Shown: positions 7,521-56,106 of the stretch, in pieces
Numbering within the stretch: position 1 is the first letter of the stretch
How the letters are laid out: every line of letters begins with the position of its first letter
NCBI GenBank assembly: GCA_964187785.1
Contig: OZ076409.1
Coordinates: 37,760,001-37,824,000, forward strand
Direction: 5' to 3'
From: Amphiscolops sp. MND2022
Taxonomy: Eukaryota
Length of the DNA: 64,000 nt
The notes under the pieces: model-generated
Told to the model about the DNA's origin: nothing
The model's input: the letters and a program-made list of their open reading frames with translations, nothing else
The model's database searches: none
Translations under genes and position numbers: made by a program

Positions 7521-7562
7521 ATTTTTTATTTAACAAACCGAAAAAAATTTTTAACCGGAACT

Positions 7563-16865: not shown

Positions 16866-17570
16866 TGTCATGCCTGATGCATGTGAATATTGAACAAAAG
16901 ATGTGGCTAACCACCCAACATTCCAGAGCTGAAACAAACCAAAATACGGCACACGAAGTCTGGCGAAGGGGAAGAATGTGGTTAACTAAACCACATCAAG
17001 AAACTTAAACTCGAATCTTTCAAATGCGTCATTTATATTTAATTTCCCAATCATAATCCATACATTCTCTACATGTACCTTTTAAAACAATTTCATGATA
17101 TATTAGGTAATTGTACAAGTAATGTGGCTAGCGCACCATCATCAGATTTTGTTTTAATGCAGTTAACCTCGTGACCAATGCTTACATTAACTATTTGCTC
17201 ATACGATGAGAGAAACATAACTACATTGCAGTACCAACCGAGTAAACCAATTAGTGAGTCATGTAACTATGGTAACGCGTGTAAATGTGAGTGTAATTCA
17301 GTAAATATGAGCGGGATGGATAGAGTAAGTAATGCGGAGAGTGAAGGTAGATCACAAGAGAACAAATGAACGAGTTTGACAACGGCAACTTGCTAGAGTA
17401 CCGAACTGAGGCTGAACGACGTGCAGTAAACCAACGATTCACCGAAATGAATACGCAAACCAGTGAACTAACGAACTTAGTTCTTGTCCTGACAGAAAAG
17501 ATATCCTCTAGCAATAGAGAAGGGAACGTTGTAAGTACTGCCTCCAATGAACAAGACACACGTTCCGACA
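16866..17570 (+). repeat. 5' LTR of element B (internal ~200-bp deletion)
   Basis: TGTCA...CGACA; matches 31516-32430. Followed by the PBS remnant AGGTGACAGGAG. Confidence 0.88.
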
Positions 17571-18750
17571 AGGTGACAGGAGCTCCTACAATCAATCCTC
17601 AGACGAATCCACTGTGCCCATCCACATCGCAATTCCCTCAGTCATCCACCAACCAAATTGACGACATTGTAAACGAAATCCACCACCTGAGAGATACCAC
17701 CACGAATACAGTACAACGTCCAACAAGACTTCAAACGCAAGTCCCACTTTTCCGAGGAAATCGGGAAACGTACAACGAATTTGAGCACCTTCTGGTCAAC
17801 CACCTCAGGCCACACCAGCACAAACTGTCAGAAGAGCAGAAACTGACATACTTCCAAAGTTAGCTACGCGACGACGCTATTGAATTCTGGCAGTCATTGA
17901 AAATAACGAATCAGACAACCTTAGCGCAAGTGTTGCGTTATTTCAAGAGGGAGTATGCCAAAGAAGACCTGAAAGAAGTGGCCAACTACAAGTTTGACCA
18001 AATGCGATACGACCCTTCCATACAGACATTTAACGACTTTCTCAACTAATTCAAGAAAGCGGCGAAGCAAGCATTCGGGAAAGAACTAGTGACATAAGTG
18101 AGACCTTTTTGGTCGCAAAGCTCCAAGTTCAGATGCAGAATGAACTGCCAATGGCAGGCAAACACGACGCATCGATGGAAGAGATTCGGACATTTGTGCA
18201 ACAGAGATGCCAGTATGCACAGCTCCTTCTGAACATATCCAGTGCACACCCATTCAATCAGATGAATGCACCACAACCAAATGCAGTCACACCTCAGACG
18301 TTCAATTCCCAACCCCAACAAAACAGGAAACCAAATGGGCAATGCCGTCCCTGCGACATACATGGGCACAAATAGGCGGAATGCAGGAAACGCCTCAGAG
18401 AAGAGGCACAAACCAAAACCGCAAACCAGAATCCACAACAGCCAGCCCAATCCAACCAAACCCAAGAAGTCAGACCAAAATACAACCCTAAACTAGTATG
18501 GCAAATCTGTGGCAAGGTAGGACACTCAACCCGAGACTGTTACTATAGAAATACGGCTATATCAGCATACAGAAGCGTTCCGTATCCCAAACAGTCAACG
18601 GAGAAAAACAAACAGTTCAGAAGGGATTTCCGACAGACCAACAGCAGAGTCTACAATACAAGCGAGCTGTCCCACACAACCAGCGACGAGATCGACAATG
18701 CTGAAGAAACGGAACGACACGATGACTTAGAAGACCCAAAAAATGTTTAA
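17308..18750 (+). pseudogene. gag: Gag of element B (starts in LTR; ATG deleted in the 5' copy)
   Basis: LQTQVPLFRGNRE.YNEFEH motif shared with C; degenerate CCHC knuckles; multiple stops. Confidence 0.8.
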
Positions 18751-21700
18751 AGCCCCGTCATCCTCCTCAATCACACAAAAGTGCGCTCCAAACTCAACCA
18801 CAACCAACTACTACTGAAACTCGACTATATACCGAAAACCACACGGGGTGGCAGTCCCGTCCTTCAACTTATACTAAGGAAACTACAAACTTTGTCATCA
18901 CAAGACACTCGACTGACAACTACACCATCAAGGCGAAGGAGAACAAGCGAAAACCCGAAGTCAACAACATAGAACCGTTACATTCAGATAACACATTGCG
19001 CGACCAACCGCATGAAGACAATCAACCCACATCTCCAGAACCAAACCATCCACCGAAGAAGCCAAAGTACGAAGTCCGCCAATTGAGCGCCACCCTGCAA
19101 CTCAATAAGAAAAACAGGATGTTGTATGTGCCACTTCAATTCCGAGCATACGAAAATTTTGGCCTCCTAGATACGGGAGCAATCCAAAGTGCTATCTCAG
19201 AAGCAGAACTTAGACGCATCCTCACAGCCCACCCAGCTGCCCTTCCCCAAGCGCTCCTGTCCCGGAGTTCAAAGTACAGATCGCTAATGGCAACATCGGA
19301 CCAGTGAGGAAACATGTCTTGTTAGGATTCTTTATTCTTTATCGGCGGAAAAGTCTTTGAAGAGACACTCATGGTTCTCCCGACAATGGGGAACGTACTC
19401 GTTGGAATGTCATTCTTCAAGAAATACTCCGTTACGCTACACTTAGCCAACAACATAGTCAAATTCCCGGATATCACCCTCCAGCTACGATCAGTCAACA
19501 GGAAAAATAAATCACTCGAATTGAAAACAACTCAGAATGTTGTGATCCAACACAACCAACAAGTGTTCGTCCCAGTGGTGATTGAACGCGACCTAGTCGA
19601 CATCACTGGTACTGTAGAAGGACTACCCGGTTTTTAAAGACGCTCACACCTGAAGGTATCTCCGGCTCTCAGCGAAACCCAGGAGGGTCGGACTCACGTT
19701 CAGATCACAAATCCACTCGACTACCAGGTTACCATCAATGTGAGTACTGCTGTAGCATCATTCAAGATAATGACACAAAAACAAGCTAAAAACCTACTGC
19801 CGATGACAACCCACCAACTAAACCTGAATTCACAAAACCCAGACGACGCTGAAGCAGTTTGTAGCGAAACTTTCCAGGATCCAACTGTAATGTCAGATAG
19901 ACGAAGGTACTCTTGGCCTGAGACTTGAGATGACCCGTCAAAACTCAACAAGATTGAAAAACGTATCTACGATGAGATCATCAAACTCAGGGCAGAGGAG
20001 AAACTGGATCCAACAGCAAGCAAATAAAAACGGCAAGAATTTCTGGGGGTTTTTCAGTGGAAACTATCAATACTGAACACTCACGAGAAGCAGAAAATTG
20101 AGGCTCGATTGGTCAAGTACCATGACATCTTCGCCAGACGCAGACTGGACATAGGGATCAACACCGAGTTCAAGATAAAGTTGACTACCAAACACGACAG
20201 AACCGGTTAATGCCCGAAGCTTACCTACACCAACGAGCCTGAAAGACGATTTACTGGTTGATTTGGCGTTGATGCTGGAGTACGGTATAATCACAACATT
20301 GCCGTACAGCAAGTACTCATCACCCATCTTCTCCCAGCGCAAACCAAATGGGAAGCTCAGGTTCCTTGTCGACCTTAGAAGAATAAACCATTTACTGAAA
20401 AATGACTACAACCAACACAACCACCCAGTGACAACGATGGCAGACGCAGCGCAACATATGGCAGGAAAGCGATACTTCTGTAAACTGGCCTGTTCACAGG
20501 CGTACCACTGCTTGCAGATGGCAGATGAACAACCAGTCCAGCTACTCGCATCCAATTTAGTAAGTAGGACTTTCGCCTACCTCAGGCTAGCTCAAGGACT
20601 GAACCGATCAGTATCAGCCTTCAACAGTACGGTTCGTGAGAGTACCAGGTGGTCAAGGCTGATAAGTGCGCTCAATATGCCAACGACATCGGCATTGCTG
20701 CCAACAATGAGTTGGTCGACAACATTGAGTCAGTTTTCATCAAGATCAGACAAGCTGGCCTGAAGCTGTCAATGGCTAAATGCGCCCTGACATAGAGTTC
20801 CTGGGACGGAGCATCACCTCCAAGGGAGTTGCACTCATTGAAGAAACAATCGACAAATTCTTGAAAAACATCAAGTTACCGACGTCCGTGAAATCTCTAC
20901 AACGGTACATTGGTTTCATTCAGTTCTACCACCAAAACATTCCATGCCTAGCCGAAAAGCTTGTACCACTTTACAAACTGTTACAGAAAGATGTCAAATT
21001 CGAATTACATCAAGTCCATTAAGATGCCATATTCAACTTCAATGAGAGCCTCGCAAATTCAGCCAAGATTTTGCTGCAACTACCACTTCCGGACAAACAG
21101 CTAGTGATCATGTGCGATGCTAGCGAGAATGCAGTCGGATACGTTCTCTTGATCGAGGATTACACTGAAGCGAATGATGGACCAACGAAGTCATATGCAC
21201 CAGTAGCCTTTGCTTCGCAAAGGTTTACTGAGGGCGGTGTGTCACGCACGATGTACGCGAAGGAGTTCCTGGCTTGCACTTCGCATTTGACGAGTTCGCC
21301 CATATCTTGTGGGGAGTGAAGAATCCAACGATCGTCATGACTGATAACAAAGCACTCACAAGATTTTTCCAGTCCAAACAAAGACCGCCAAAACTGTGGA
21401 ACTACTGCGACCAGGCCCTCCAATTCGACTTCGTCCTGGCCCATGTACCTGGTATTGAGAATCCGGCAGCTGACTACCTGTCCAGAAGTGACATCAACCC
21501 GAATGACAGTGTTCACCTCAAACTCCACGATGAAAAACCAGTCTTCAAAGTCGAAACTGATCTGGCATCCAAGACGACTAAACAAGATGATGACGAGAAG
21601 GAGTACATCCCAGAAGATAAAGATGTACGCTTTCGTAGTGTGTGGCCTTCGACGTGGCGCAAGTGGGCAGCGCACGGTTCAGCCTGTGCGTCAAACAGCA

Positions 21701-24700
21701 CACAAACACTCTGGAAAAAGAATGGGGACGAGGCCGCAAGGATCTACCCCACAACCTCCCAGAAGTGCATGGAGCGGCGAAGGGCTAGCCACCCGGAGCA
21801 TCTCCCCAACAAACATAATGGCGAGTGCCCTCCTGGACCCGGTAGTATAGGCGCGAGACAAACAGACGCTCCACAGCAGACGCCACACAAGTAATCATCA
21901 GAACCCAAGAGGACATGTAGTACATCAGAGCAAGACGCACTGCAGCCAACAGCCCGGAAGACGGAAACGAATCCGAAGGACGCCTTCTAGATCTGGAGAA
22001 AGCTTACCCCAGAGTTTCAAAACCGGCCTTATGGCAGATTCTAGAGCGTCTCGGTCTCAAAGGCAACTTCTTCGACACTATCAAGGACCTGCACGAAGCC
22101 ACGTCCTACGCCGTCAAGAGCAGAGAGGGCGAGAGCGAGAATTGGCTCCCACAACGTGGTCTCATTGAAGGATGTCCAACCAGCCCCGTCCTCTTCAACA
22201 TATTTCACCGAGTGGTGATAAGAGATGCGAAGAAGAACAGACGGTCGAGGAGCTCCTCACCGGTGGGGATCCCCTGAAGTCACATCGTGCAAGACAAAAT
22301 CCCCGGACCGAACCAGTTTGGGAAGAACAACTCGGAATGTCAAGACAGCCACCTGGCCAAGTCCTTATTCGCAGACGACACCACCATCCTGGGCACAGCC
22401 AGAGAAATGCGGACAGGATGTGACGCGGTCAAAGAAACCATGCAGAGCTTCGACGAGAAGAACAGCACCCTCAAAGAAGAGAAACTAATCTGTGGAGCGG
22501 AGCAGTCGGCGGACATCAGAAAGCTCGGATGTTGGGTGGACCCCAGAATAGACACACGGAACCATATGGCAAGATCTGCAAAGCTCTGGGCAAAACTGAA
22601 GCCACAACTGATCAAGAGTAGGCTCTCCAAAGTACAACAAGCCCTGGTAGTGCAACCCTGCGTGGAAACCGGCCTCCTTTTCGATGCAGCCACACGCCCG
22701 TGACAGAAAAGGGAAATAAAAACGATGCAATGTTGGATAGACAGAACCTATCGGTACATATGGAGCAACAAGAAAGAAACCCCCTTAAGACGATAGAAAA
22801 AAACCACACGAACATGCAAGATAGTCGAAACAGCCTTGGAATAAAGATTCTGCAAACCAAGATCAAAGAAAAGCCTCCAAAGAATCGGACACGTTCTCAG
22901 GATGGACCAGCACAGACCGGTGAAGCGAGCTAAATGTGGATGGTTACCGGAGATGGAGCACAACTCAAAACAGAGAACGAAGATTAGAACAACCCTATAC
23001 TATTGGCTCAAACTTGTGAAGGAAGCGGGAATTGACACCAAAAATCTAGATTTCCTCACGGCCAACCGCAACACGTGGACAGAAATAGTCCGAAAACGGA
23101 ACGACCACCTAGCAAAGTGAGAAACTAGCCGAGGAGACAGAAACAGAGAAAATGCTCAATACACGCCCAGGAATGACAATCACCCGGAGAGACCTGACGT
23201 TCCCTGATTGCGAGATGATCTGTAAAACCGCGGGAGTGTTAAGCATCCACATCAAACGGATGCACCGCCAAGCGACCACATCATTTAGTTGCGGAAAGAG
23301 TCAAACCGAGTTCAAATCCGGATACACGCTCAAAAACCACCACGAAAGATGCCGAGGAGAAAGAAAAGTCGGGTCCTCAACCCGAGTGCAGCGAATGCGA
23401 AAAAAACAACACAGTCATCAAACTTCGCAAGACATCGGAAGAAGTGTTGCCCTTCCGCCCCCGAAGCACCACAACCCAGAAAATACAAGGCCAGATATGT
23501 CCCATGCCCCCAATGCGAATATCCAGTTGCAGCCATAAACCTTGCTCGACACCTCCGCGCCTGCAGAGCCAGACGGAAGGAAAGCGCACCCTCAGCAATA
23601 GGGTGAATGCTAAAAAAGGAGAAGAAGACAATGGTCTACCTGATGCGACCACACCCGAAAATCTGACGATGCAAACACTACTGGCGACGTTCCCGCAACA
23701 ACGTCATGAAGACGAGGAACAGTGCAGCAGACGCTTTGACGAGATCAGGTCCCAGATACAACCATTTGTGACGCCCCCTGACCCAACACTTTTCTTCAAC
23801 CGATTCTACCAACGGAACCAGGTTCACATGGAAAATCAGGTATGCCCTTCGGGGACTTCAGAAATTCTTAGGGCTCAAGGCGAAAATAGTGATGTCCAAC
23901 GTGTAAATAGGATCCTCATTTTGCAAGAAACTCCTCCGAACCAAGTGAACTTTGCAAGTACCTTTTTTCAAAAACTTTTCAAAAACCGTGAAAGACTTGA
24001 AGTTTTGAACAACGTATTATACAGGCAGTTTTTTGACAACGTAGGAAACTTAGCTGACCGACAAATTGTAGTTCCTCCAGAAACTACGGAAGCCATATTT
24101 AGAACGATGCATGGCGACACATGCAGGACACCCTGGCGATTCCAAAATGTTAGGTGAACTAAGGAAAAGGTACTACATCCCGAATCTAGCAAAAAAAGTT
24201 CAAAATTTTGTAAATAATTGCCAAGACAGTATCAAAGCGAAACCTAGTAAAAAGTAGCACCGTGACTTAGTCGGTGAGTTCCCGCGATCTAATGGGTACT
24301 CACACATTCTGACTGCATGCGATTATTTCTCACGATATCTGTTTGCCATTCAGATCCGTAAACCTGATACCAAATAGGCAGTTGACGCACTGCTAGACAT
24401 ATTCACGAAACACGCATATGTGCCAAAACACATCATCGCTGATAAAAGCGCAGCCTTTACATCACAGGTCATACAAGAATTGATGGACAAAGCTGGGATC
24501 AAGGTATCCCTTGCGACGAACAAACATGCCCTAACTATTGGGATGATCAAAAGATCGCATCAACGTCTGAAGCAGATCCTGAAAATAAACGTCTCCGCGG
24601 ACCGCCCACAGTGGGACCGATACGTCAATCTTGCTGTGATGGCACACAAAACGACCTACCACCAAACTCTAAAATGTTCACCGACTGAAGTCTTCCATGG

Positions 24701-25618
24701 CCGCGCGCCATAAAACGCGCTTGATCTTAAATTTGGCACCCCTCTAAGCTCTCCGAGGAACGCCATTGACACACAGTCGCTAGTGCACAATTTGAAGGCT
24801 AAGTTCAAAGAAACTCACACCAACATAAACCGAGCGTTCCATAAGTATAAAGCGTGCTACGATCGAAAAGTGCAAGCATCACCACTAAAAGTAAACGACT
24901 TTACCTTTTTACTGAACCCAAAATTATCGCGCAAACGAACAAAATCCCTTTCAACTCCTTCAATTGGGAGGGCCCTTACAAAGTAGTTAAGGTGTTATCA
25001 CAATCGAGCTACATTGTCAGAAAAGTCGGTACCTTCAAAACACAGTGTGTATAATATAGAAGGCGACTCTGCCCGTTCGTACCACACGACCCCATTGAAG
25101 ATGTAAACGACGACGTAAACCGACATTACAGTGACCCCAACGCCACTGACGACAAGTCAAAATTCAACGATAATCTGCCTGCATCCGAACAATCACTGCC
25201 GGCTGAAAACACATTTGAAATCGAGACAAACGTAACCGAATTTTTTGATTCTGAGCACGGAACCATTTATTACGAATAAAGACGCGTTCATGAGGTACCA
25301 CCTCTATCCAGTCCGATTCCAGAAACTGCCCACACTGAAAATACGCACCAAATTGAAGCTGAAAATCAATCTGACCAACCACCAATACCACTGCCAAATA
25401 ATGAGTCTAGTCTAAACAACACATTCCGACAAAGGGTGATGTGGCATCGATCACATCGTCTACCAAAATGTCCGCACCGACCACACGAAATAACAATACC
25501 CGATAGAGCCTCCGAGAAGCAACAGTGCCAAAAAACATTTGATAACTTTCATGTTCATGAACTGCAAGCAAAACCCACACTTCTAAAATTGATGCAACGA
25601 AAATCTGCAAACCAATAA
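18739..25618 (+). pseudogene. pol: Pol of element B, interrupted by a LINE
   Basis: LLDTGA protease, RT (LRFLVDLRRIN, YFCKL), RNase H MCDAS, integrase fragments; many stops and frameshifts. Confidence 0.88.
21621..23622 (+). mobile_element. 5'-truncated non-LTR retrotransposon (RTE-like) with C-terminal zinc fingers
   Basis: RT motifs LDLEKAYPRV, GLIEGCPTSPVLFN, LFADD. C2H2/C2HC motifs. 3' hairpin CACCCT/AGGGTG and a GAA-rich tail. TSD AGAAGATAA/AGAAGACAA; removing it restores pol EYIPEDNGLPD. Confidence 0.85.
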
Positions 25619-26144
25619 AAATTACATGCATTCATTTGAAAGTGGTCTACGTCACTACATGCAACTACCTAATTGAAAAACAGCTTTCCAAAAAAACTTT
25701 TCAGTGACGACTGGAACTCACTGTCATACACACTAGAGAGTACCGGCAGAGTAATATATTACTCTCTACTGAGACAGCTGAGCACAAAGTAAACACATGC
25801 AGTGTAGCTACACTCACCACATCGCTACATGAAACAGCTGATCGAGGTAAAACTTACATGTAATGCTGCTATGCACACCACATCACTACAACCTGATATT
25901 AGAAATATATGTATTCAACATGAAAATTAGCCACTAATTTGTTCAATTCACGGGAAATTCCACCCAAGCAAATTAAAAGGGATTGCTCTGATGAGAAGCT
26001 GTGCTTCCCGGGTAATCCGATGACACAGTGGGTTCTAAGTTAGGTTTGTAGAGATTTTGTGACAACAAAACTTTTTCCCCTAAAACTTGAACTTTTAAAA
26101 CTAAAGAAACGACAGTAAAATGCAGTTGTCGCACCCCCCTCGAC

Positions 26145-29100
26145 CTAATAGTCGGATTTCATCAACTGGTCCCATAGTCTACATCGGGCCACATCGGACA
26201 GGCGAGTGACCTGCATGTCACTCATCTCACATACTCGCAGTAGCCCAGTAAGAGTTTGACGTGTATGACCCGAAAAGGACTTGGCAAGCCATCTCCGCAC
26301 AAATTGTAGACTGGAACGTAGGGTATCCACTGGCATCGTGCACGTCGTCGACAAAATTTTGTTCGTAAGTTCCAACTACATTCAATCCAAACAGAATGTT
26401 GATCAAGGTCAACAACTCTCGACACCGAGACCAGTAGAGGTAAGAGCATTACGATACACATGCCGGTACGAACTAGCAGGATCCTGCTAGTTCGATTTTT
26501 GTCCAATCAGAGCGCGAATATTTTTTTTGGAAATATAGTTAAAATTCCTGTTAAAATAGGAAACCTGTTGACAGATCAATCAATTGTACTAATTAGAAGC
26601 TACAAGGTATTTTATTTGCACGTAAATGCGTGGATGAAACACACGTGTTCACGTGTGCAACTTGCATTGAATGCAGTTTATACGTACTATGCACGGTAGA
26701 GCTCAGTAATGATAACTAATTATTTATTGAATCATTGTTTACTTTGACTGGTTTATGATGCTGTGGTATGAATTAGAATTAAAATGAACACTGAGTTTTG
26801 AATGCATATAAACATGGTGTAAGTTAGTCAAAACTTTGACCACATTCCACTTTTCGGAAGTATAGGAGTCCCTCAATTTGCAAAAAGTGGAAGTTAGTCA
26901 ACGTTTTGACTGACTTACGAAAAAGAGTATTTTTGGACTAACTTCCGCTTTTTTTCTAATTACGTGTTTTGACTAACTTACACAATTTTCCATTACGCGC
27001 GTTGATTTTGCTACACCGTTGAAGCATAGACCGTCTTGACTAACTTACGCTGAATGACCATTTTACCATTTTACTCAGATTACGCAGCTTGACTGACAGC
27101 AGCTTACCGGTACGTGTATCGTAATGAGAGCCACATCGTTACCACGTCATCTACTACAGGTGCACTTTCGGTTAGTGTCCATTTCTTCTTGAAGAATTGC
27201 GTTACTTCCCGATATTGCCTGAGAACAGCCGTAGCATTGTCACCATCCAAAAGTTGGAACCTAGAAAAAGTAGCGCACGTTCCGACAAAGGCATTAATAC
27301 ACGGATCGTCAGATCCTCTCTGAATCAATTCTGGCTCAAACGGTGTCATACTGAAGTGACCAATGGCACCTGGTTCCCACGTCCCTGTTAATTTCCCGAA
27401 CAATAACGCCCAGCAACTTCGGTACAGATCTATAGAAGAATGGCAACTGAGTTCGTACGTCATAAAAAGAAAGGTTCTCGTCCACTGCCACGTACTCGTA
27501 GTCCACAGGTTAGGCACTCACTTCAAATTCAGCAGGGATAAATGGCGGAGATTATACAGAGCACATAAGTTTTCGAATGAATTGTGACAGCTCGCGCTCT
27601 GCTAACGTGTTGCTGTCTCTGTCACTTCTGCACAAACGTGGACCAGTCTCGACCACTGCAAACACAAAAGAAAACACATGAGTCATCGGCCGTACCTCTT
27701 TTCGGTTTGGAATTCTTTTACCAAAAACGCTGTCTTGAAAAACGTGCCTATGTCTAGCCCCTTGCTACATCAGACCAAATTCAACACTCTCACAAAAAAA
27801 TTTTTTAAAGCAACGTGTAACACTAACGCAAATCCATAATGAGTCGAAACACAGCAAACCGAGGGCGCATCATTGCATCCTCAAAAAGTTGCCCCCCAAG
27901 CGGAGTTACCAGACGCAACTCAGAAGTTACATTAGGCCGGTGAGTGCCGAAGTACACAGCGTGATCGTTCCAGTACTCGACGACCTCAAGACACAATGAT
28001 GCCAGCAAAACCACATCGCTCCCTCCAAATTGAATGATTTGCAAAACCAGAACAAAACAAAGTTTTGACCCAATCTACATACTGTTATAGTCTCTATGCC
28101 CAACGTTTTCCTTTGCAAAAAAATATATGTGTATATTAACAAACAATGTCATAGGCATAACCACTTCATGAAAATTAAACTAATTACTTACTCGTCTCAG
28201 TTTCGGCAATCGATCCACCAAGCCCTTGTGCACCACAGCGGCTAAGCGCACACCGAATTCTGCTAGGAATTGCTTCCTCACGAGATCCAACAACCACGTT
28301 TGAGTCACTCGATCGACAACCAAGGGATGAGTGATTCCAATTGTTGCTGCTACAGTGTATCCAATACATGACTCCAACTCAGTGCTGTACATCCTGATAC
28401 TGGGAAAAATGTTGCAAACTGAGCAACAATGGTACCACATTAGCAACCATCCTCGTCTCCCATCCAGTTCCAACAACCAACACACCCAGAAAAGCCGTCT
28501 TGATCGAACAGTCCCCGACTACGTGACACTCGCAGATCCAATCAGTGTTATGCCTTCTGTTGCTTACGCCCACGCTCTTTCCACGGGCTAGCAGACTGTC
28601 AAACTGCTCAACGACGAACTCGTACAGTCCGTACAGCACCAGACTCTTTTAACACATAAAAACATCCTCATGACGTCCTCACTTCCACATCATCACAGAA
28701 AAATACAAACACTAGTGTTCATGACACCAAGTACACACTTTCCCCCTCCCTCAAAAACCACTAACTGTAGTTACATGTAAACGCTCTTTCACAAGCAAAG
28801 AAACGTCCATACATACCTGACAATGGGCACACCTGACAAAGGAGCGACACGTAGTTCAGCACTCATACTATCCCGCCACGACTCCATCATTCTCATCACA
28901 GCACCCAACGAGGTAACATTGCAAAAACTGTTTATAAAGTGGCCTAGCCACAGGTAAGCCACGCTCTCAGTAGCCAATGTTGGTCTCTCACCAGAGGATG
29001 CTTCGGCCTCCTCGATCGCTATCCTCTCGTCCACAAACAAACTCAGCTCTGACTCTAGAAAGACTGGAGGCTCCGTCATCCTCTCTTGGCGAATGCGTTT

Positions 29101-30680
29101 ATCCTCATCTGCTGTTACAGGACGACAAGCTTTGTCAAGAAGTGGCATCTGCATCATGATGCGGTTTTTCTGCTCTAGGCCGGTGTATTGTACACGCCGC
29201 CAATGCTCCCACAATAAGAACAGTCCGCGACCAGCAAAACTAAGATCGGCTTTACACAGTCAGCACCGAGCATACCCGTCCACCACACGTTTGTGTCGGG
29301 GAAACCAACGAAGGTCCCCACCGCTCCAGACACGAAGTACAAAGGCTTCAGAGTCTTTACTTCCTTTGTACGAGTTGTAACAGTAAAACACCCCAATCAC
29401 AAAACTCCAAGAAAAAAAACAAAAAAGAAAGTGTTTTGTATCGTCTCCCGTGTGCCTTGAGTTTAGGAAAGGTTTCTAAAACCCTCACATGATCTTTTGA
29501 GAGTTCATTACCAGGTTTAGATGATGTAGCAGCTCCTCCATCCCTCGACACCAAAGACCGCAATCCACCGAACGCAGTTGATACTTCGGAGATCTGACTC
29601 AGACTAATGGATGCCGCACCACTAACGGCACCCGAACTGCTAGGCACGTCTAATTGAATGGAAGGCACAGCTGCCACTGCCAAATATTGATCCGCCCCGC
29701 TCCCAGAGTGCAATTCAGACTCCGCAAGTTGGCCCATGGCTGTCTTCAGCTTCTGCACAAAGCCTTCAATTGAAAGTACAACAGTAGGAGCCAACTATCC
29801 AAACTTCGAATCTATTACTGCCTTGATTGTTTCGGACAACTCTTTTGTCATGTGATGCAGTGAGGACATCAATTATGCCCTCGTTACGGATGCGCCGACA
29901 GACGTTCCTACAAAAACATTGGTTTCCTCACTTGTTATATGTCACCCTACAGACGAAACACAGTAGACTCCAGCAACGAATGGCGAATGGAAATATTCTC
30001 GCAATAATGTACAACAGTCAACTACCCTGTTGACCGGCGAGAAAGGTTTTGAAGCGGTCCTCACCCACTGTCACTTCTGTTGATCCACTTGCACCAACAC
30101 CATGTTTTGACTCAAGAAATGTACGAAGTACCCGCACGATGTCTACCAATGACAACTGTTCTAAAGCACAAATGTTTAATTAGCAACAACATCTGTTACC
30201 CAGAGCATTAGATCCCGGGAAGTACACATGACTTGATGCTAGCACTGCTCTAATGACATACTGGCACACGATAATTCAGAATGCTCTGACGGAAGAGAAC
30301 CTTAAACAGTTACTTCTTCGAAAAATTGCCTGCAATCTACTAGTAAGGACACACTGTCCTACAAATCTAACTACTGACTACGAACGAGACAAAAGAAGAA
30401 ACGAGAGTGTTCACGGAATTCACTTGACAGTGCAATTCCCAGTAATGTGTTGGCGCATCGTTGTTGGAAGCAGTCACCTGACCTGCGAAGCGACAACACG
30501 TTCCAGTAAGGATGCCCTCCGGACAAGACTTCCTCTGCAACAGCAGGTAAATCACTGCCCACCGACGAGAAGCTGAATTGTTCAAGCTCGGTGAATACAC
30601 CCTCTGCAGCTAACACAGCTGCAGCGACATCTGCTTCAGCCTGAGAATCCCCCTCCTGCGCCGACGAAGTCTTAATGATA
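26145..30680 (-). pseudogene. Antisense seven-exon BED-finger/hAT-transposase-like gene of element B (decayed, 3' truncated)
   Basis: Introns (+ coords) 30161-30414, 29908-30025, 29375-29511, 28646-28816, 28039-28191, 27656-27827, at the same protein positions and phases as in C. Two acceptors read CAA instead of CAG. Confidence 0.8.
26447..27126. mobile_element. MITE (CATTACGATACAC TIRs, 2-bp TSD) inserted in the last exon of B's antisense gene
   Basis: Inverted termini CATTACGATACACATGCCGGTA / TACCGGTACGTGTATCGTAATG. Removal with one AG copy restores the frame MWLSYLYW, matching C's LWVSYSHW. Confidence 0.8.
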
Positions 30681-31039
30681 ACAACAATCAGGTCTGAAAA
30701 ATGATAAAGTTGAGGCTATCAAACTAGAAGCACACAGTCGTTTGCGATTTACTGAGGTTCAAAGTATCTTCTAACGATCATGTGGACTGATCACCCACAC
30801 TATCTATGCAAAGAAACTACCCGGAAATTACAAAGGGACAACCTAATTTCCGAAATTAGTCTACCATCCTCCTTCTAAAAGGGTCAACGCCTACTCGAAA
30901 TTTTCTTCAAAATCACCATACAACTCCCTGGCTTAACCTAACCATAGCCCACTTGATCATTAGTACCGTTACTCAGTAAGCCGCGGCCGAACTGAACTGC
31001 TAGAGAATATCACAAATGAAGATAGTGGAGAGGAATTTG

Positions 31040-31260
31040 CATCTCGTAATTGGCATCGACGAAGAATTGTTTACAAAGCGCACGACAATTCAATACATTC
31101 TCTTCCGAACACTTTCCGAACCAGCCGAGTAATTATATACGCTGCCACGTTAGATTAATTTCCGGTGAATTCAATTCTATTTCCAACTCTTCTACAATGC
31201 GCACGGCTGGTTAGCGTGGCTACTCGCGCCACATCAATTCACACTTTACTCCCGGACGAA
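31040..31260 (-). promoter_or_regulatory. Candidate promoter of B's antisense gene
   Basis: Non-coding block strongly conserved with 55563-55790. Minus-strand TATATAA (31133-31139), CCGGAA and ACGTG motifs. Confidence 0.55.
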
Positions 31261-31515
31261 GTGGAAAAATCAATGCGCAAATACAATTTCTTCCTCTTGC
31301 TTGCTGACTCGAGACGAATTATCTATCCGACTATGGACATTGTGCAGCCGATTAGTCACTACCAATGTGGTTGCCATGACCACAGCATTGCTACCTTCTA
31401 CCGACGAATACAGTTGAACAATTTCCAACTCAGAATGCTGTCCAATTTTACTCTCAAAACGAAGTGCTCATTCACCATCCCCGCAACATATTTCTTTTTC
31501 AAAAAAGACCCGGAG

Positions 31516-32430
31516 TTTCATGCCTGATGCATGAGAAGATTGAACAAAAGAAGTGGCTAACCACCCAACATTCCAGAGCTGAAACAAACCAAAATACAGT
31601 ACACGAATACTGGCGAAGGAAAAGAATGTGGTTAACTAAACCACATCATGGAACTTAAACACGAACCTTTCAAATGCGTCATTTATATTTAATTTCCCAA
31701 TCATAACCCATACATTCTCTACGTGTACATTTTATATCAATTTCTTGATATATTAGTTGATTGTACAAGTAATGTGGCTGACGCACCATCATCAGTTTTT
31801 ATTTTAATGCAGTTAACCTCGTGAACAATGCTTACATTAACCATTTGCTCATACGATGAAAGAAATATAACTACATTGCAGTACCAAACGAGTAAACCAA
31901 TTAGTGAGTCATGTAACTATGGTAACACGTGTACATTATATTTCGGTGCAATACCAAATTTAGTCTTAAAATGCGCAATTAGTAATCGAGGTGCGATTTC
32001 ACACCATAAATATAGTGCAATATGATTGGCCGATGTGGTCACGTGACCAACATCGACATACTCAATTGAAGACGAGAGTGCGCAATCATTAGATTTTGAG
32101 AAGCCATAGATGGTCAACACTAGATCTCAGAGAGTAGGAAATAATTCAGTAAATATGAGCGGAATGGATAGAGATAGTAATGCCGAGAGTGAAGATAGTG
32201 CGCATGATGTTCTCACAAGAGAACAAATGAACGAGTTTGACAACGGCAACTTGCTAGATTACCGAACTGAGGCTGAACGACGTGCAGTAAACCAACGATT
32301 CACCGAAATGAATAAACAAATAGTGAACTAACGAACTTAGTTCTTACCCTGACAGAAAAGATATCCTCTAGCAATAGACAAGGGAACGTTCTGAGTACTG
32401 CCTCAAATGAACAAGACACACGTTTCGACA
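31516..32430 (+). repeat. 3' LTR of element B (915 bp), contains gag start MVNTRSQ at 32110
   Basis: Direct repeat of the 5' LTR, ends CGACA. Confidence 0.88.
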
Positions 32431-41460: not shown

Positions 41461-42342
41461 TGTCATGCCGGAAGCATGAATGAAACTGATAAAGAAAATT
41501 CTAAACATTAAAAACTCCCCATCTTCATTATCCCATCATCATTATTACCTTCCAAAATAAAATCGATTTGTAAAAGTTGACATCATTTACTCATTACACG
41601 CTACGTACAAGTGCTTTCATCATATTTAACTTCATCACTAAACTGTAGTACTATATATAGCAATGGTATTAAACCACCATAGATTCAATTTGTATCAACC
41701 AACGCAATACTAAAGTGATAGATGATTCATGTAACCATGGTAACATATCGGCGCTATCTTTTGTACTAAACGCCATTTACGTTGCTACCAGCAGGACGCA
41801 CCAATTAACACCTAATCAATAGCGCAATACTATTGGTCAATGCGGTCACGTGACCAGCTTCAGTGAAAATTGCGACAAGTGTTGAAGTACCTTCAGTACA
41901 AAAATTACCTTCACCTAACGTAGTGTTGCTTACCTCATTGATTTACGCAAAACTTGATATTCATATTTTCAACTTGATCAATAAACTTTTAAAACAGCAA
42001 TTCCTTTCGAAGATTTTGAAGATGGTCAATACTAGATGTCAAAACGTAGATAGTTACGCAGCGTGTTCCAGCGGAATGGAACGAAACAGTGACAATGAGA
42101 GCGAAAATAGTTTCCCTAACACGTTATCTCGAAATCAAATGAAAGAATTCGAGAATGGAGATTTGATCAACGTTAGACATAATTCCAACTTTGTTCGGTC
42201 GATCAACGTTTCATGGAAATGAACAGACAAATCAGTGATTTAACATGTATTGTGTTAGCCCTTACTGAGAAAATATCATCATCGACAACCGAATGTAGCG
42301 GACTCAACACCGTTACTATTACGAACGTGACCCGTTCTGACA
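41461..42342 (+). repeat. 5' LTR of element C (882 bp)
   Basis: High identity to 56107-57038 apart from a ~50-bp indel near the start. Confidence 0.93.
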
Positions 42343-43610
42343 TGGTGACAGGAGTCTCCACGGACTCAAGCCCGACTCCAAATCTCCCACAGCCACGCAG
42401 GACCCTCCCAACCCCTGCAACTCACCAGACCAGAGATCGTGCACCACCCACCAACGAACCTCAGATGGATGATGTATTGACTGAAATACATAATCTACGA
42501 ACAACAACGACTGACGGAGTGATACAGCCCAAAATCCTCCAAACTCAAGTACCTCTCTTCCGCGGAAACCGAGAGAAGTACAACGAATTCGAGCACCTAC
42601 TGAAGAACCACTTTCGCCCACACATGAACAAATTAACGGAAGAGCAGAAACTAAACTAATTGCAGTGCTGCTTAGGGACGAAGCCATAGAATTCTAGCAG
42701 ACACTGAAAATCACGAAAGAAACGACACTCCAAGACGTCCTGCAAGCTTTCACCAAGGAGTATGCGAAGGAAGACCTCAAAGAGGTATCGAAGTACAAAT
42801 TCGATCAGATGAGGTATGACCCGACGAAGGAATCGTTTGCCGACTTCCTCACTAGATACAAGAAACTCGCTAAACAAGCATACGGAGATAAAGTCAACGA
42901 CATAGCCGAAACATCCTTGTTTGCCAAACTACCAATCCAGATTCAAAATGAACTCGCCATGGCAGGCAAGCACGATGCTAAGGTTGAAGAGATCAAGACG
43001 TTCGTGCAACGTCGTTGCCAATATGCACAACTGCTCCCTGGCACTTCGGATATGCAACCACTCAACCAAATCTACAACTACCAACCCAAACAACCAGAAC
43101 GCCCAGCCGGCCCCCAACAACAATACCACTGAAAAGACCGCCACAAGGGAAGTCAAACGAATGTTTGAAGGAAACTGCAGATACTGCAACATACTGGGCC
43201 ACAAGTGGATTGAATGCCGCAAACGTCTCAGAGTCGAAGCCAACGGGATAACAAAGAAAACACAACAACGTCCTCAAACTGACAACACCAATGCCCAACA
43301 ACAACAGACCGAAAAACCACGATACAACTCCAAACTAGTATGTCAAATCTGCGGAAAAGTTGGACACTCCGCAAGAGACTGCAGGGACAGAGTCCCAAGT
43401 GCATCAGCTTACGGAAATATACCATATAACAAGCAGTCCACCAATGAGAATCGCGAATTCCGCCGTGAGTTCAAACAATCGCAGAACAACTACCAGCCAA
43501 CCTACCAAGTCAAGCAGGAGACAAGCCAGCATACCCAAGCAGAAGAAGACAACGACTGCTACGACATGGATTACAATGATGAATTCGACCAGAATTCAAA
43601 AAACTTGTAA
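42022..43610 (+). pseudogene. gag: Gag of element C (ATG inside the LTR)
   Basis: Starts MVNTR. Two CCHC knuckles, CRYCNILGHKWIEC and CQICGKVGHSARDC. A few frameshifts and stops. Confidence 0.88.
42343..42355 (+). promoter_or_regulatory. Primer-binding site TGGTGACAGGAGT (tRNA-Leu-like), lying within the gag frame
   Basis: TGG directly after the LTR. Resembles the TGGTGTCAGGAGT Leu-type PBS; the tRNA identity is inferred. Confidence 0.7.
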
Positions 43611-46600
43611 TGCCACGTCATCCTCCATCCAACCAAACAGAAAGTGCGCGCAATAAACAACCAACTTAAACTCACTACTACTCGAAAACTACAACAACAG
43701 GATGTTGGCAGCGTCCTGACAAACAGACTAAACCATCAACGAAATACTATGTACACGAAGTCTCACCAAATAACTACCATATACTTCCTCTCATAGACGA
43801 CGACCCCAATTGTACAACGAAAGACTGCATTCCGAAAGAAAACCCACCTAAACCACAAGGAAGAGAAGATGCCAACCCGACAAGAACCAAAAACCCACGA
43901 CGCAATCCGGACGAACTAAATGACAACACCAAATGGGGAAACTCACTGAAGCCAACAAATATCAGACCATTGAGCGCTACACTCCAACTTGACAGAAGAC
44001 ACAAGATGATCTACGTCCCTCTTCAATTCCGAGAGTACGAAAACGAAGGACTGCTAGACACAGGAGCAATCCAGAGCGCAATGTCCGAGAATGAGCTACG
44101 CCGCATCTTACAAGCTCACCCAGCAGCCCAATTGGAAGAATACCCAGCACCGGACTTCAAAGTCCAAATTGCCAACGGATACATCGTCCCTGTGAGAAAA
44201 CAAGTATTGCTTCGCTTTTTCATCGGAGGGAAAATATTCGAAGAGACATTCATGATCTTACCAACAATGGGAAACATCCTCATCGGAATGTCCTTCTTTA
44301 AAAAATACTCTGTTACGCTGGATCTTGCAAATAACTTTGTACGATTCCCAGAAATATCCCTCCAACTAAAACCGCCGAATGGGAAATTCAAACTGCAGAT
44401 GTTGGAACTCAGAACAACCCAAAAAACAACCATCTCGCCCGGACAACAAATCTTTGTGCTTGCTACGACGGACAAGAACATTGGAACAATAACAGGCACA
44501 ATAGAGGCGTTTCCAGCCTTTGAACGAAAAACTGAATTGCTAGTGTCTCCATCAATGTCCGAAATCAAGGACCAACAGACCCACGTCCAAATCACCAACC
44601 ACATGGACCACGCAATTACGACACCCCAGAATACCACAATCGCAGTCTTCCGAACGCTTACGCCAAACCAAGCTAAAAACGTTCAGTCAATGACTAACGA
44701 GCAGCTGACATTGATCACTAAAATCCCTGAAGAAGCAGCCAACGTGATCAACCAATTGTTCTAGGATCCCAGTGCCACAAATGACAAGCTATGGTACCCA
44801 ACGCCCGAAACATGTGACGATCCGGACAAGCTAAACAAAATAGAAAGACGCATCTACGACGAACTCATCAAACTCCGAGAAGCTGAAAAACTCAACCCGA
44901 CATGTGATGACGAACAACGCCAGGCGTTCCTCGATAATTTCAGCTGGGACGACTCGATCCTCACTGAGCACGAACAACAGAGGATCGAAGAACTGTTCGT
45001 CAAATACCACACGATATTTACCAGACATCGTCTTGATATCGGCATCAACACCGATTTCAAATTCAAGCTGACACCCAAACACGATGATCCGGTGTACGCC
45101 CAGAGTCTACCTACTCCGACCAATCTAAAAGATGACCTGCTGGTTGAACTCGCCCTGATGCAGGAGTACGGGATAATCACAACGTTACCATACAGCAAAT
45201 ATTCCTCCCCAACATTTGCACAACGAAAACCCAACCGGAAACTTCGGATATTAGTCGACTTGAGGCAGATCAACCACCTCCTCAAAAACGACTACAACAA
45301 ACACAACTATCCAGTGACAACAATTGCCGATGCAGCCCAGCACATGGCTGGCAAGAAGTACTTTTGCAAGCTTGACTGTTCGCAAGCTTACCACTGCCTT
45401 CAAATGGCCGACAAACAGTCAACACAACTTCTAGCATTCAATTTTGGCAGCAGAACCTTTGCTTACCTCCGATTTGCGCAAGGGTTGAACAGGTCTTTGT
45501 CTGCATTCAACAGCACAATTCGCGAGTACCTGGATGCACTAGTAAAAGCAGACAAATGTGCCCAATATGTCGACGACATCGGGATTGCTGCCAACAATGT
45601 GGACGAACTGATAATCAACATCGAAGCAGTTTTCCAACAGATACAAAAGGCAGGACTAAAGCTGTCGATGTCCAAATGCGCCTTTGGCCACCCGAAGATC
45701 GAGTTCTTGGGTAGAAGCATCACTACCAAAGGGACCACACCGCTTGAGGACAAGATCGACAAATTCCTCAACAACTTGAAACTACCAACGTCAGTCAAAT
45801 CACTGCAACGCTACATCGAATTTGTACAGTTCTACAGACAATACATACCGATGTTGGCAGAAAAACTCGCACCTCTGTACAAGCTACTACAGAAAGACGT
45901 CAAGTTCGTACTGACGCAGGTTCACAAGGACGCGATCTTCGACATCAATCGGAACCTGGCACGGGCTGCTAAACTGTCTCTTCGACTACCACTGCCAGAC
46001 AAACAGCTAGTCATCATGTGCGACGCGAGCGAACATGCAGCAGGGTACGTACTCCTCATTGAAGACTACACCGAAGTCAATGATGGACAGAAGAAGACAT
46101 ACGCCCCAGTAGCATTTGGCTCGCAACGATTTACTAAGGTCAAATGTCATTGACCATGTATGCGAAAGAATTCCTCGCAATGCACTTCGCCTTCGACGAA
46201 TTTGCTCACATACTGTGGGGCCTCAAAAAACCCACAATTGTAATGACGGATAACAAAGCACTGACCCGCTTTTTCCACTCGAAGCGAATCCGACCTAAGC
46301 TGTGGAACCATTGCGACCAAGCACTGCAGTTTGATTTTGTCCTCGCTCATGTCCCTGGAGTCGAGAATCCTGCAGCAGACTACTTGTCAAGACTCGACAT
46401 AAACCCCGAGGACAGGATACATTTAAAATCGAACGACCAGATCCCAGTCCACCACATTGAGATAGATCTTGCGGCCAAAACCCCAAAACAAGATGATGAC
46501 GAGGAAGACTACGATCCTGACGAACAGCGACCCGATGTAACGATGACCACTACACCAAACCAACCCGAGACCACTGCAGACTTTGCGAAAATGCAGTCTT

Positions 46601-48560
46601 TGCTAAACTCCCTGGCGAGCAACCACTACCAACATGACGATGAACGCCTCAAAATGATTCAGCTCATCAGCAGACACCTTGAACCAGTTCTGTCAGGCGA
46701 CGCTCCTTCCGTCATACTAACGAGGTTTACCAGACGTCATCACCCCAACTCGGTAAATCAGGAATACCCAAACGGGGGTTCATAAATTATCCAAGACCAG
46801 TTAAGTAACCAGGACATCCAAAAAATGGTTCGCATTTTAACAAACAACGAACCGCTGCCAAGCCACGTTAACTTTACCAGTTCCTTTTTCCAAAAACTTG
46901 TTAAAAACAGAAAACGACTTGAAGTTGTCAACAAGGTCTTTTATAGGAACTTTTTTGATAACACTGGCAGAATTCTACTTAAACAAATTGTAGTACCTCC
47001 AGAAACTACTATGCCCATAATCAGGACAATGCATGGCGACCCCATGCAGGGACACCCTGGGGCATCAAAAATGTTGGTAGAACTCCGCAAGCGTTATTAC
47101 ATACCAAACTCGAGTGCACACGTGTCAAAGTACGTAAGTATCTGTATTGAGTGCATACAAGCAAAACCGGTTAACCCGAAAAGACTGACGCCTCCTTTGG
47201 AAAAAAATCTACGACCCCTGCAACGGGCCGGAAGACGTACTGGAAATCGATTTGGTAGGCGAACTACCTATTTCAAACGGATATACGCACATCCTGACGG
47301 CGTGCGACTACTTCTCGCGTTATCTGTTCGCGGTACCGATCCGAAAACCAGATGCGATATCCGTGGTGAAAGCACTCATGCAAATATTTACCCAACACGC
47401 CTACGTCCCGAAAACAATAATCACCGACAAAGGCACAGCTTTCACATCCAGCATCATGACCGAAATAAAGAAAACTGCGGAATCAAGATCGACCACGCTA
47501 ATGTAAAGCACGCCCAAACCATAGGGATGGTAGAACGTTCCCACCAAAAACTGAAACAGATTTTGAAAATTAACAATTCCGCTGACTCCCCACCAGGGGA
47601 TAGGTACGTTAACATTGCAGTAATGGCACATAACACAACCTACCACCAATCACTCAAGTGTACCCCAAGTGAAGTCTTTCACGGTAGGATTCCGTTTAAC
47701 GCACTAGATCTCAAATTCGGCAACCCCCTGAAGTGTGAGACTACGGAAACTGACATAACGAGATTAGTTGATCAAGTGAATGAGAAGTACCGACAAGTGA
47801 ACGACAATATACTACAAGCGTACCACAAGTACAAAAGGTATTACGACCGCAAAGCTCAAGCGTTACCGTTAAAAGTCAACGACTTCACCTTCCTGCTTAA
47901 TCCCAAACTCACAACACAGTCCGACAAGATTAGTTTTAACGACTTCAAATGGGAAGGTCCTTACAAAGTAATTAAAGTACTGACAAACTTAACTACATAA
48001 TCAGGAAAGTCGGAACTTTCCGAACACAGTGCGTGCATAGGATGCGATTACGTCCTTTCACACCGAACGCACCAATACCGGACATTGAAGAAGACTCAAA
48101 TCGCTTGTTCGCTGACCCCGATGCGGCCGATGATCAAGCGCTCTTCAATGACCACATGCCTCAACATTTGTACGCAGAACCAGCACCGGAAACAATCGAT
48201 CAAGAAGAAATCGACAATGAACATGGCATCATCTATTATGAGTACGTATGGAAATCGAATGACCAAACGCTGCTGCAACCAATTCCTGAGAGCCCACCTG
48301 AAACTTGCGAGCAACCCCCTGACAATTCAGTTGTTAATCACGACACCAACAACGAATCTGATACTGAAACAAGCGAATCTGTTACTGAACATACCACGAC
48401 AATTCACAATGAGCACAACCACACAACGTCGCGTAACAACGCAACACGGTACAATCTCCGAACCGAACCGCAACCGAAAACCTACCAAGACTTCTTAGTC
48501 CACGAACTCCGCGTCAAACCGGCTTTGCTAAAATTCATGCAAGGCAGACCCGTCAACTAA
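43599..48560 (+). pseudogene. pol: Pol of element C (PR, dUTPase-like insert, RT, RNase H, integrase)
   Basis: LLDTGA; YVDD; MCDAS/KEF/MTDN; integrase H..GH...CIEC, EIDLVG, ITDKG, GMVER. Several frameshifts. Confidence 0.93.
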
Positions 48561-50676
48561 AACTCATGCAAACGTAACATCTGTGTTTCCTCTTACTGAC
48601 AATTCGGAGGCTTCGCCTCGTGTCAGTACGAGAAGTAATACTACATGCAAAATTTAAATGGGAGTGTGCTACACTCTCTCCACAAAAAAAGAATCTCGTA
48701 ACACATACATGTGAACTAAATCAAGTAGTCACGAAGAAAAGCGATACTGAATGATACCACAAATAACGTCTAACACTCACTGTCATCAATTTTCAAAATT
48801 ACCGGACAAAGCACATTTACGCCCTTAACCGGCTAACGAATGACAGACGAGACATCCGTAACACAGTTCCACACCGCGTCGCTACGTGTTATTTAACGTT
48901 TCACTCTATTCCACCAGCGGAATGAACGAAAAGAAACACCTTACGCCGCCACGCATACCACGTCATTCTTACCATAAAAAATATATATACATGCAATTAA
49001 CTGAGTGTAGTCTACATCACCACATGTAACGACCATACCACCGAATTACTCAATTTACTTTACGTCATTCAGTGACGACTGATACTCACTGTCCTGCAGA
49101 CCCGAGTTTACCGGCAGAGTAAAGTGTTACTCTCTACCGAGACAGCTGAGCGCGAAAGTAAATACATGTAATGCAGTCATATACACCACATCAACCTAAC
49201 CGGAAATTACTAAGTACATGTAAAACGTGTGTAAGCGAACCACTAAATTATGCAATTCATGAAAATCTCCAACCACACGCCTTCAAAGGAATTGCGTTGC
49301 AATTCCGTAACCACTGACTCTGAATCAACTAAATTAGGTTCCCTTTGCAAACATAACAGCCCACAAACGAGAACGTAAAAGAATTAGCCGATTCGCTCAA
49401 GTTACGTCTTCAGAACCTAGTTTCACACTTCCGCCCGAATAACCATGATGTGGTTCGGCTGTGTGGGTGCGTCATCAAAAGCGCGTCTGTGTGGTTGGTC
49501 AAACATTCAGATGAAGCTTGCTCTTTAGCAAGTGGATTCGGTGTAAGTTTTGTATGGGTTTTTGCGACGGCAAACAACCTTCCCAATAAACTGAAAGGAA
49601 AAAACCTCTTCCTCAAGGACATTTACATGCAGTCGTCACTATTACTTGCCAATTTTGCCGTGACGCTCTTGTTCTTACTGGTGATTCGAAGGTTTCGCTT
49701 CGCGTCAGAAAGGACAACGATACAAATACACGTAGTCACTATCACCACATGACCGAAATTCGGAACAAGGGATAGATCACACCTTCCCTTGCCAAAAAAG
49801 GTAATGGACATGGGGAAACCCAATTTCCATTAATCTGACGTTAACATTTGATACACGTCACGAGTGATGACGTCTCATGACACACATCAGCGTTGACGCT
49901 GTCAGAGCTAACGCTCAACTTGACAACTAGAATAATACATGTAAAGCACAAAAACAATATTTGACACCTTAGAATGACACTTAAGCTCCTAAACACCCGT
50001 TAAAGCACACGCACTTAGAGTATATATAGCGTGCAATACATTAGTTCGACCATTGGGAAGGAGCGGTGCAGCTCCGTTCATTCACCTTGGTGTAACCACA
50101 GGGCATCGATACCACTTTGTGAGATCTGTGGGTAAACCTCCGTGAACTCTGTCTTAAGTGGTGGCTACGCAAGTAACCATCATGCATTCGCACTGGAATA
50201 AGAAAAAACTCTATTCAGCCCCCTAACAAAATGAAACCAGCTAACAAAATTCACATGTAAAAAACTTGTATAACGTAGGCAACATGTAAATTCAACTTCA
50301 GTAACGGTGCTGGAAGCAAAACAAAATAAAGTCAAAAGTCATGCACCAACGACAACTGAATACTACAAATCATGAAGAAAGAACAACACAACAGGTATGC
50401 AGAATGAAACAAAAATCATCAAAATGAAAACTGAAAAACAAGCTCAACGTTCTAAAACATGTAAAATAACCAGAAGTCAAACAAAAAGAACAGGAGACTG
50501 CCTGTTATCACAACTAGCCTCTTGTGACCTCTGATATATCTAAAACTGCTCCCGCAATAAAACAACAAAAAACATATATAAACTACACGTTCAGAGGCAA
50601 AACATTCAAATTGATACAAATCATTTGAACAAGCAACAAACTACCATCTACAAGCTCAACACAGTGTAGTTCACAA

Positions 50677-56094: not shown

Positions 56095-56106
56095 AAGGAG
56101 GGGGAG
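56095..56106 (+). promoter_or_regulatory. Polypurine tract of element C
   Basis: AAGGAGGGGGAG abutting the 3' LTR. Confidence 0.85.

Follow-up and report, generated by a model that had tools for sequence, protein, structure and literature searches.

Two Ty3/Gypsy long terminal repeat (LTR) retrotransposons, here termed B and C, lie in the 64,000-nt window analyzed (Amphiscolops sp. MND2022, contig OZ076409.1, positions 37,760,001 to 37,824,000; contig C1 of the 1.07-Gb genome G000). Each carries between pol and its 3′ LTR, facing backwards, a gene of seven coding exons that purifying selection has maintained, that is found in mosaic pairings of allele and element backbone, and whose copy in B is dead. 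The proposal considered below, to which we give slightly less than an even chance, is that Ty3/Gypsy elements exchange this antisense gene among themselves, and that its product, a catalytically dead hAT-type protein, binds element DNA via a zinc finger and thereby promotes or protects element expression.

That B and C are Ty3/Gypsy elements is evident from direct repeats with TG...CA ends, a primer site and a polypurine tract, with C having TGG directly after its 5′ LTR and a purine run ahead of its 3′ LTR, and the counterparts in B being decayed. A domain scan of C yielded zf-CCHC, aspartyl protease, RVT_1, RT_RNaseH and Integrase_H2C2, which is the Gypsy order of gag followed by protease (PR), reverse transcriptase (RT), RNase H (RH) and integrase (IN); the order in B was assigned via its homology to C. 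Both are 15.6 kb in size, and it is in the ~7 kb from pol to the 3′ LTR of each that the minus-strand gene sits.

An initial annotation of this DNA had proposed, from the letters of the two copies, that their exon peptides align, and a six-frame comparison bears this out, with the same minus-strand order and phase in both (intron phases 1,1,1,0,0,1). Exon ends were set in C and one genomic relative and then carried over by alignment to other copies, and at 12/12 internal exon boundaries both reference copies landed on identical alignment columns. Sixty copies (B, C and 58 of the first 60 loci, with L065 and L068 left out for inverted duplication and truncation) have GT at 353 of 356 donors and AG at 342 of 356 acceptors, and across them introns differ in length and internal exon lengths keep phase. 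In a further clade (17 of 20 loci; L107, L119 and L120 left out), 117 of 119 splice sites at exons 4-7 are canonical. Judged from DNA, it is nearly certain that this is a real gene, and its transcript is predicted to be spliced.

Upstream of exon 1 (30690-30750 and 55070-55145) a conserved GT stands ~60-75 nt ahead of an AG, and the pair suggests an additional intron in the 5′ untranslated region. Two distant relatives, P0290 and P0328, cross from exon 5 to exon 6 uninterrupted, so intron 5 has been gained or lost; other distant relatives start or stop at the exon 4 or exon 5 boundaries. Deletions in L011, L029, L041, L044 and P0002 cover intron 4 together with some exon sequence and are not precise intron loss, and P0001, a one-time candidate for an intronless copy, was dismissed on finding that it reads through intron 4.

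Over 898 aligned codons the products of B and C are 45.5% identical, with nucleotide identity of 0.58/0.67/0.36 by codon position. The proportion of nonsynonymous sites that differ (pN) is 0.366 (bootstrap 0.34-0.39) and the synonymous counterpart (pS), which is saturated, 0.774 (0.73-0.81). For comparison, RT-RH of the two elements has 75% amino acid identity (pN 0.15, pS 0.86) and integrase 63% (pN 0.25, pS 0.75), again with saturated pS, these being upper values since poorly aligned windows were excluded. With 13 representatives, the ratio of the corresponding rates (dN/dS) is 0.04-0.17 in the 11 of 78 pairs with dS below 5, the other 67 being saturated; dS beyond about 2 is unreliable, which counts against leaning on the whole of that range, and the four pairs with dS below 1.5 give 0.09-0.17. 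It is thus well supported by sequence comparison that the gene, like gag-pol, is held by purifying selection, as the initial annotation had argued from protein conservation despite nucleotide divergence during long-continued movement, and the selection revealed by codon comparison is on the protein and not on RNA alone.

Relative to shuffled sequence, alignment Z scores for exons 1-6 of B and C are 6.6, 2.1, 5.5, 28.9, 10.3 and 21.7 (exon 2 hardly exceeding chance at the DNA level), and for the six intron interiors 0.8, 0.0, 7.7, 0.3, 0.6 and 0.7. The earlier assertion that intron interiors do not align thus holds for five of the six, which do no better than shuffles, and fails for intron 3, whose 5′ end, to judge both from B versus C and from subfamily alignments, is not free to drift. 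There a motif of ~45 nt, present in all aligned subfamilies and with its core pattern in 64 of 82 loci, terminates in a conserved TTTTAG ~35 nt past the exon 3 donor; the distant relative P0413 reads through a stretch resembling it. An RNA hairpin was considered and dismissed, the RNAalifold consensus having no pairs, and the motif may instead be a binding site or an alternative acceptor. The proposed shared branch-like motif of intron 6, TGACTCAT, did not prove family-wide: of 18 representatives, only B and C have it exactly, and two others have a similar word.

The diagnosis that B is dead stands. It has stops (e.g. at 29875 and 27554), CAA before exons 4 and 6, several indels and, within exon 1, no in-frame upstream ATG. 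The miniature inverted-repeat transposable element said to be inserted in it is recognizable as a 680-bp insertion with 22-nt inverted ends, and the basic C-terminal tail, likewise reported missing, went with a deletion of roughly 1 kb at ~26155. Within the insertion, the repeat at 26549-27120 has at least 39 other places matching its 572 bp at 99-100%, and 2144 preliminary candidates in the genome; to judge from the outer inverted ends, one element may sit inside another. An Rfam scan of 24900-32500 gave three sub-threshold matches only, all within the 680-bp insertion. C is likewise broken, in exon 4, by a 1-nt deletion at 53543 and a stop at 53477.

The family is large, with hundreds of copies in this genome. 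Single-exon searches of the genome gave at least 136, at least 150 and at least 150 matches out of 938, 1142 and 1062 candidates, in several subfamilies, counts that are lower bounds and not copy numbers. Eighty 10-kb stretches were taken across subfamilies. Integrase is antisense to the gene and downstream of it in 73 of 82 loci, with the exceptions examined among the other nine being rearranged, truncated or interrupted, and an unbroken gene model of 1125-1134 aa is present in 14 of 58 copies. Two aspects of the sampling weaken the case built on these figures: top-scoring matches without stops were preferred, which inflates the share of unbroken copies, and all loci were found starting from the gene, with the result that element counts cover gene-bearing loci. 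In the three elements traced to both ends the LTR pairs are 98-100% identical, so the family has moved recently. A rearranged locus represented by L117, L118 and L135-L137 (contigs C6, C4 and C12) has two gene copies tail to tail and no pol; it lies in a segment of more than 20 kb that is 96-99% identical across the three contigs, suggesting segmental duplication or a larger mobile unit.

The family also exists in other assemblies, since two distant relatives that were tested lack a close match in genome G000 (the best match of P0290 being 31-34%); relatives in other assemblies are ~30% identical. The full HMMER scan gave 206 representatives at E ≤ 0.001, of which the best 150 are all of ≤253 aa or similar exon-sized pieces. 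A metagenome scan with P0413 had no match, nor did a search with C exon 7 against proteins of 796-2270 aa, the latter being weak evidence.

Does the gene simply descend with pol? For 53 copies (7 of the 60 being left out for poor integrase cover) gene and integrase distances have a Spearman correlation of 0.28, with pairs that are not independent, and of the strong splits, 19 in the gene tree and 12 in the integrase tree, 3 are in common. Strict co-inheritance was dismissed in view of this strong conflict between trees. Single linkage at 85% and 88%, with broken copies becoming singletons, gave 17 gene classes and 13 integrase classes; 4 of the 13 integrase classes bear 2-4 gene classes, and three gene classes occur on 2-4 integrase classes. 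L033 and L072 are illustrative, with 90% and 93% identity flanking the gene, and inside it no blastn match and 49% amino acid identity. When L022 is included, the LTR sides are 89-93% identical and spacer plus integrase 92-96%, with genes that match patchily at best, at 64-70% in DNA. Near-identical LTR/integrase backbones can therefore bear gene alleles only ~50% alike, and the integrases of gene-carrying copies differ by up to 54%. Several recombinant types recur in 3-7 copies each on different contigs, so they were amplified after exchange; the recurrence of the same combinations on several contigs also makes assembly chimeras an unlikely cause of the mosaics. These comparisons make it highly probable that the antisense gene is an exchangeable cassette moving between element lineages.

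The apparent breakpoints are at the inner end of the conserved block beside the 3′ LTR and in conserved blocks downstream of the stop. That independent exchanges have them at the same two places would be expected if the protein were a still-active nuclease or recombinase spreading its own cassette in the manner of a homing endonuclease, and several acidic residues in exon 7 are near-invariant within this genome. The breakpoints lie, however, where shared homology stops, which is what template switching would predict, and in alignments judged by eye, with no dedicated repeat search, neither terminal inverted repeats nor target duplications are apparent at the junctions. With the lack of conserved acids in exon 5 described below, we regard an active nuclease as very unlikely. 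The inner end of the block beside the 3′ LTR forms the left boundary of exchange, and the block itself may be an antisense promoter. On the other side, the nearest downstream motif was recovered from 48 of 82 loci, with none in the third clade. All alleles have several short non-coding motifs in common.

The full-length predicted protein is of ~1130 aa. Exon 1 is acidic, exons 2-3 are helical and then of low complexity, exon 4 opens with C-x2-C-x16-H-x5-H, a BED-like C2H2 finger, and the end of exon 7 is a basic tail in which lysine plus arginine make up 20-22%. The finger is the most conserved part (pairwise conservation 0.82, versus 0.47-0.60 elsewhere), and in distant relatives three of its ligands are kept at 87-98% and the fourth at 82%. 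Zf-BED was matched by 3 of 24 members, below the cut-off (best E 0.028). When an exon 4 profile was run against 5254 peptides, the two best matches from outside the family were finger motifs in hAT-bearing loci (E 0.005 and 0.0075). With features of the protein language model ESM, the ten best family-labelled neighbors are all of the hAT ZBED5/FAM200/DUF4371 family or clan (top score 0.89). For exon 5, AlphaFold gave the order helix-b1-b2-b3-helix-b4-helix, which fits an RNase H-like topology, with a predicted local distance difference test (pLDDT) score of 56-72 for the block. The linear order of motifs resembles that of hAT transposases, which is a lead only.

A considerable list has to be set against hAT ancestry. 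The top ESM score, being below 0.9, is a lead only, and the ESM neighbors of exon 7 are unrelated basidiomycete clusters at low recognition. Both AlphaFold models are of low confidence overall (pLDDT 46.6 for exon 7, and 46.7), and Hermes comes only 42nd in Foldseek (E 0.14, template modelling score 0.18) and is not among the best 50 VIA rows. Profile-profile comparison with 49 DUF4371-type hATs and 13 hAT open reading frames (ORFs) of this genome did no better, the finger excepted, than reversed or block-shuffled controls, and no Pfam family, PF05699 included, was above cut-off. Several further nulls were obtained. The exon 7 model had no Foldseek match, and the matches of the exons 4-5 model are RNase H-like but generic, the best VIA score among the best 50 rows (Z 6.0) being to sugar kinases. 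PF05699, the C-terminal dimerization domain, was found in 0 of 20 exon 7 members, with no profile match either; PF04195 (TRP28) was not matched in Pfam scans, in which exons 1, 2 and 6 were not scanned separately; PDB sequence searches with five alignments gave nothing below E 0.05; and a search of this genome for PF14291 and PF18658 gave none at E 0.001, with the controls blank too.

Could the gene then be of other descent, either captured from a host or encoding some other protein of RNase H fold whose C2H2 finger is unrelated? This question of origin is separate from that of function. The negative profile tests against two hAT clades (DUF4371-type and Ac-type), the want of a Pfam match, the generic fold matches and the six introns, reminiscent of a host gene, are all in keeping with such an origin. 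Against it, finger, helical region, RNase H-like domain and long helical region come in hAT order and at hAT size, the ESM neighbors are all hAT, L164, the only outlying match that was checked in the genome, likewise adjoins an integrase, and the listed relatives that were read are exon-sized pieces of the same gene family. We consider a non-hAT origin rather unlikely, and descent from a hAT-type transposase that has lost catalysis moderately probable. As for the loss, the deep exon 5 alignment has no acidic column at 80%. At positions taken from the predicted strands, where the acids of a DDE triad would be sought, D is at 34% after strand 1 and E at 52% or D at 23% after strand 4, and there is no CxxH. 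The protein is thus not an active hAT enzyme, and the RNase H-like domain is predicted to be one without conserved catalytic acids.

Antisense additional ORFs between pol and the 3′ LTR (aORF-3R) are known from maize Grande (gene23), rice RIRE2, Silene Retand and bean PvRetro13 (PMC7264820, PMC11963269). They share place and orientation with the present gene, are conserved among copies and, as may hold here, are probably nuclear and DNA-binding (PMC7264820). The gene in B and C differs in encoding another protein (without TRP28/PF04195), in having six spliceosomal introns and in the exchange of deeply diverged alleles; the word intron does not occur in the Retand paper. It differs also in its probable DNA-transposase origin, the review stating that similarity to other transposons had not been found for the known ORFs (PMC7264820). 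A non-plant Gypsy counterpart is brtn, an antisense accessory gene of Boty-like Ty3/Gypsy elements of Botrytis (PMC7264820, PMC8365987); the origin and function of the plant and Boty antisense ORFs are not known (PMC7264820). Bdelloid ORF3 modules likewise are extra ORFs of animal LTR elements, modular and common to lineages, yet they encode env-like, esterase or exonuclease proteins, typically from spliced element messages, and the words transposase and intron do not occur in the text on them (PMC5408684). VANC of VANDAL elements, a transposon-encoded accessory factor against silencing, is a functional analog only, being an unrelated MAIN-like protein with a DNA transposon as carrier (PMC13547354).

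With hAT transposases and their domesticated forms (Hermes; ZBED5, FAM200, GTF2IRD2, EPM2AIP1 and ZNF862) the likeness is in the BED-like finger, predicted RNase H-like core, size, domain order and nearest ESM clusters; the differences are that conserved DDE, CxxH, PF05699 and a profile match to the two tested clades are all wanting, and that the gene rides a retrotransposon and not a DNA transposon or host. A literature search, outside which were most subscription papers and repeat-database reports, did not find an LTR element with a spliced, hAT-like antisense gene. While the antisense arrangement is already known, that literature yielded no precedent for the seven exons, the size, the exchange of alleles or the probable origin from a transposase.

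What might such a protein do for its carrier? Transcription of the gene would begin at a promoter close to the 3′ LTR, and the transcript would then be spliced. The spliceosome does not see introns that are on the antisense strand of the genomic RNA, and such introns survive reverse transcription; those of the present gene would outlast it in this way. Template switching between co-packaged RNAs, within the conserved blocks on both sides, would effect the exchange. The protein may enter the nucleus by virtue of its basic tail, oligomerize via the old transposase body and bind, through its finger, motifs common to all lineages, with the acidic N-terminus recruiting host factors for VANC-like anti-silencing. 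A common DNA target inside the element fits, because the finger is so conserved and short non-coding motifs are present in all alleles. That the protein is a positive DNA-binding regulator is, as a prediction, close to an even prospect though on its lesser side.

The finger of DNA-binding type and the basic tail would also suit a protein acting at integration, one that attaches to element cDNA and to chromatin or integrase and guides entry into the nucleus or the choice of target, with allele swaps opening new niches. The retention and exchange of diverged alleles is in accord with that, and nuclear-import or accessory roles have been proposed for plant antisense ORFs (PMC7264820). A protein from a separate antisense mRNA need not, however, enter the particle, and free exchange among such divergent integrases speaks against a tight integrase partnership; a role at integration seems unlikely.

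Alternatively the gene may be a brake, with protein or antisense RNA restraining its own element or competing families as a form of copy-number control. Conserved motifs within the cassette could serve as operator sites, and transposase-derived repressors are known. Antisense transcription is also able to yield double-stranded RNA (PMC7264820). Yet this is a large family with recent activity, deletion derivatives without the gene ought to outcompete an element that represses itself, and it is the protein, not RNA alone, that is under selection; we find a brake improbable.

Some further features of the elements and their surroundings deserve mention. The 5-bp flanks of C (41456-41460 and 57039-57043) agree at only 3 of 5 bases, while 4 of 5 agree for B; recombination between two insertions may have produced C, or C may simply have decayed. 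The first gag frame of C (42183-42659) begins within the 5′ LTR and crosses the primer site, and the same start is present in the 3′ LTRs. A third, shorter Gypsy-type element at 7289-13129 (repeats 7289-7505 and 12896-13129) is too small for the accessory gene. Repeats of one family, both tandem and dispersed and with units of ~120-140 bp, are present at 59181-60360, 39422-39762 and 3119-3429, and TTACATG is clustered in the gene-pol spacer (49023-50458 and 25622-25857), where 11 of the 21 occurrences in the window lie, as counted without statistical control.

Table 1. Coordinates, within the window, of elements B and C, their antisense gene copies and associated sequence blocks
Feature	Position	Strand	Remarks
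Ty3/Gypsy element B	16866..32430	+	LTRs ~16866-17571 / 31516-32430, 92.8% identical; gag-pol decayed
Ty3/Gypsy element C	41461..57038	+	LTRs 41461-42342 / 56106-57038, 96.5% identical; gag zinc knuckle, PR, RT, RH, IN
B exon 1	30415..30673	-	Acidic N-terminus; no in-frame ATG upstream
B exon 2	30026..30160	-	
B exon 3	29512..29907	-	Two stops
B exon 4	28817..29374	-	BED-like C2H2 finger region; CAA acceptor; frameshifts
B exon 5	28192..28645	-	RNase H-like domain predicted in relatives; frameshift, 36-nt deletion
B exon 6	27828..28038	-	CAA acceptor
B exon 7 remnant	~26145..27655	-	Split by insertion; ~1-kb deletion removes basic tail
Insertion in B exon 7	26447..27126		680 bp, 22-nt inverted ends; 572 bp match young high-copy repeat
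C gene copy, seven exons	50677..55057	-	Exon 4 frameshift and stop; basic tail retained
C exons 1-4	55057-54817, 54559-54431, 54267-53875, 53724-53163	-	
C exons 5-7	53005-52517, 52419-52209, 52037-50677	-	
Conserved ~45-nt motif	29476..29520 (B); 53840-53885 (C)	-	Spans exon 3 donor and start of intron 3
Conserved non-coding block by 3′ LTR	31042..31321 (B)		77% identical to 55566-55852 (C); inner end marks left limit of cassette exchange; block a possible antisense promoter
Conserved block downstream of gene	50250..50293 (C)	-	Most frequent right limit of cassette exchange; no counterpart found in B

By facing backwards, a gene with six introns is able to outlast reverse transcription, and there is a practical warning here for annotators, that antisense cargo genes are liable to be annotated as host genes. 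Origin and function now become testable, since the same backbone can be compared with different natural alleles, and many copies, recombinants and a candidate ancestor are to hand. If the hAT origin is true, a class II enzyme has been domesticated by a class I element instead of by a host. In its fullest form the suggestion, tentative and a shade below evens in our estimation, is that a class I element took over a class II enzyme, introns included, and that its lineage, extending beyond a single host genome, keeps ancient alleles in a pool and trades them between backbones as a cassette, in the way of a counter-defence locus pitted against host silencing.

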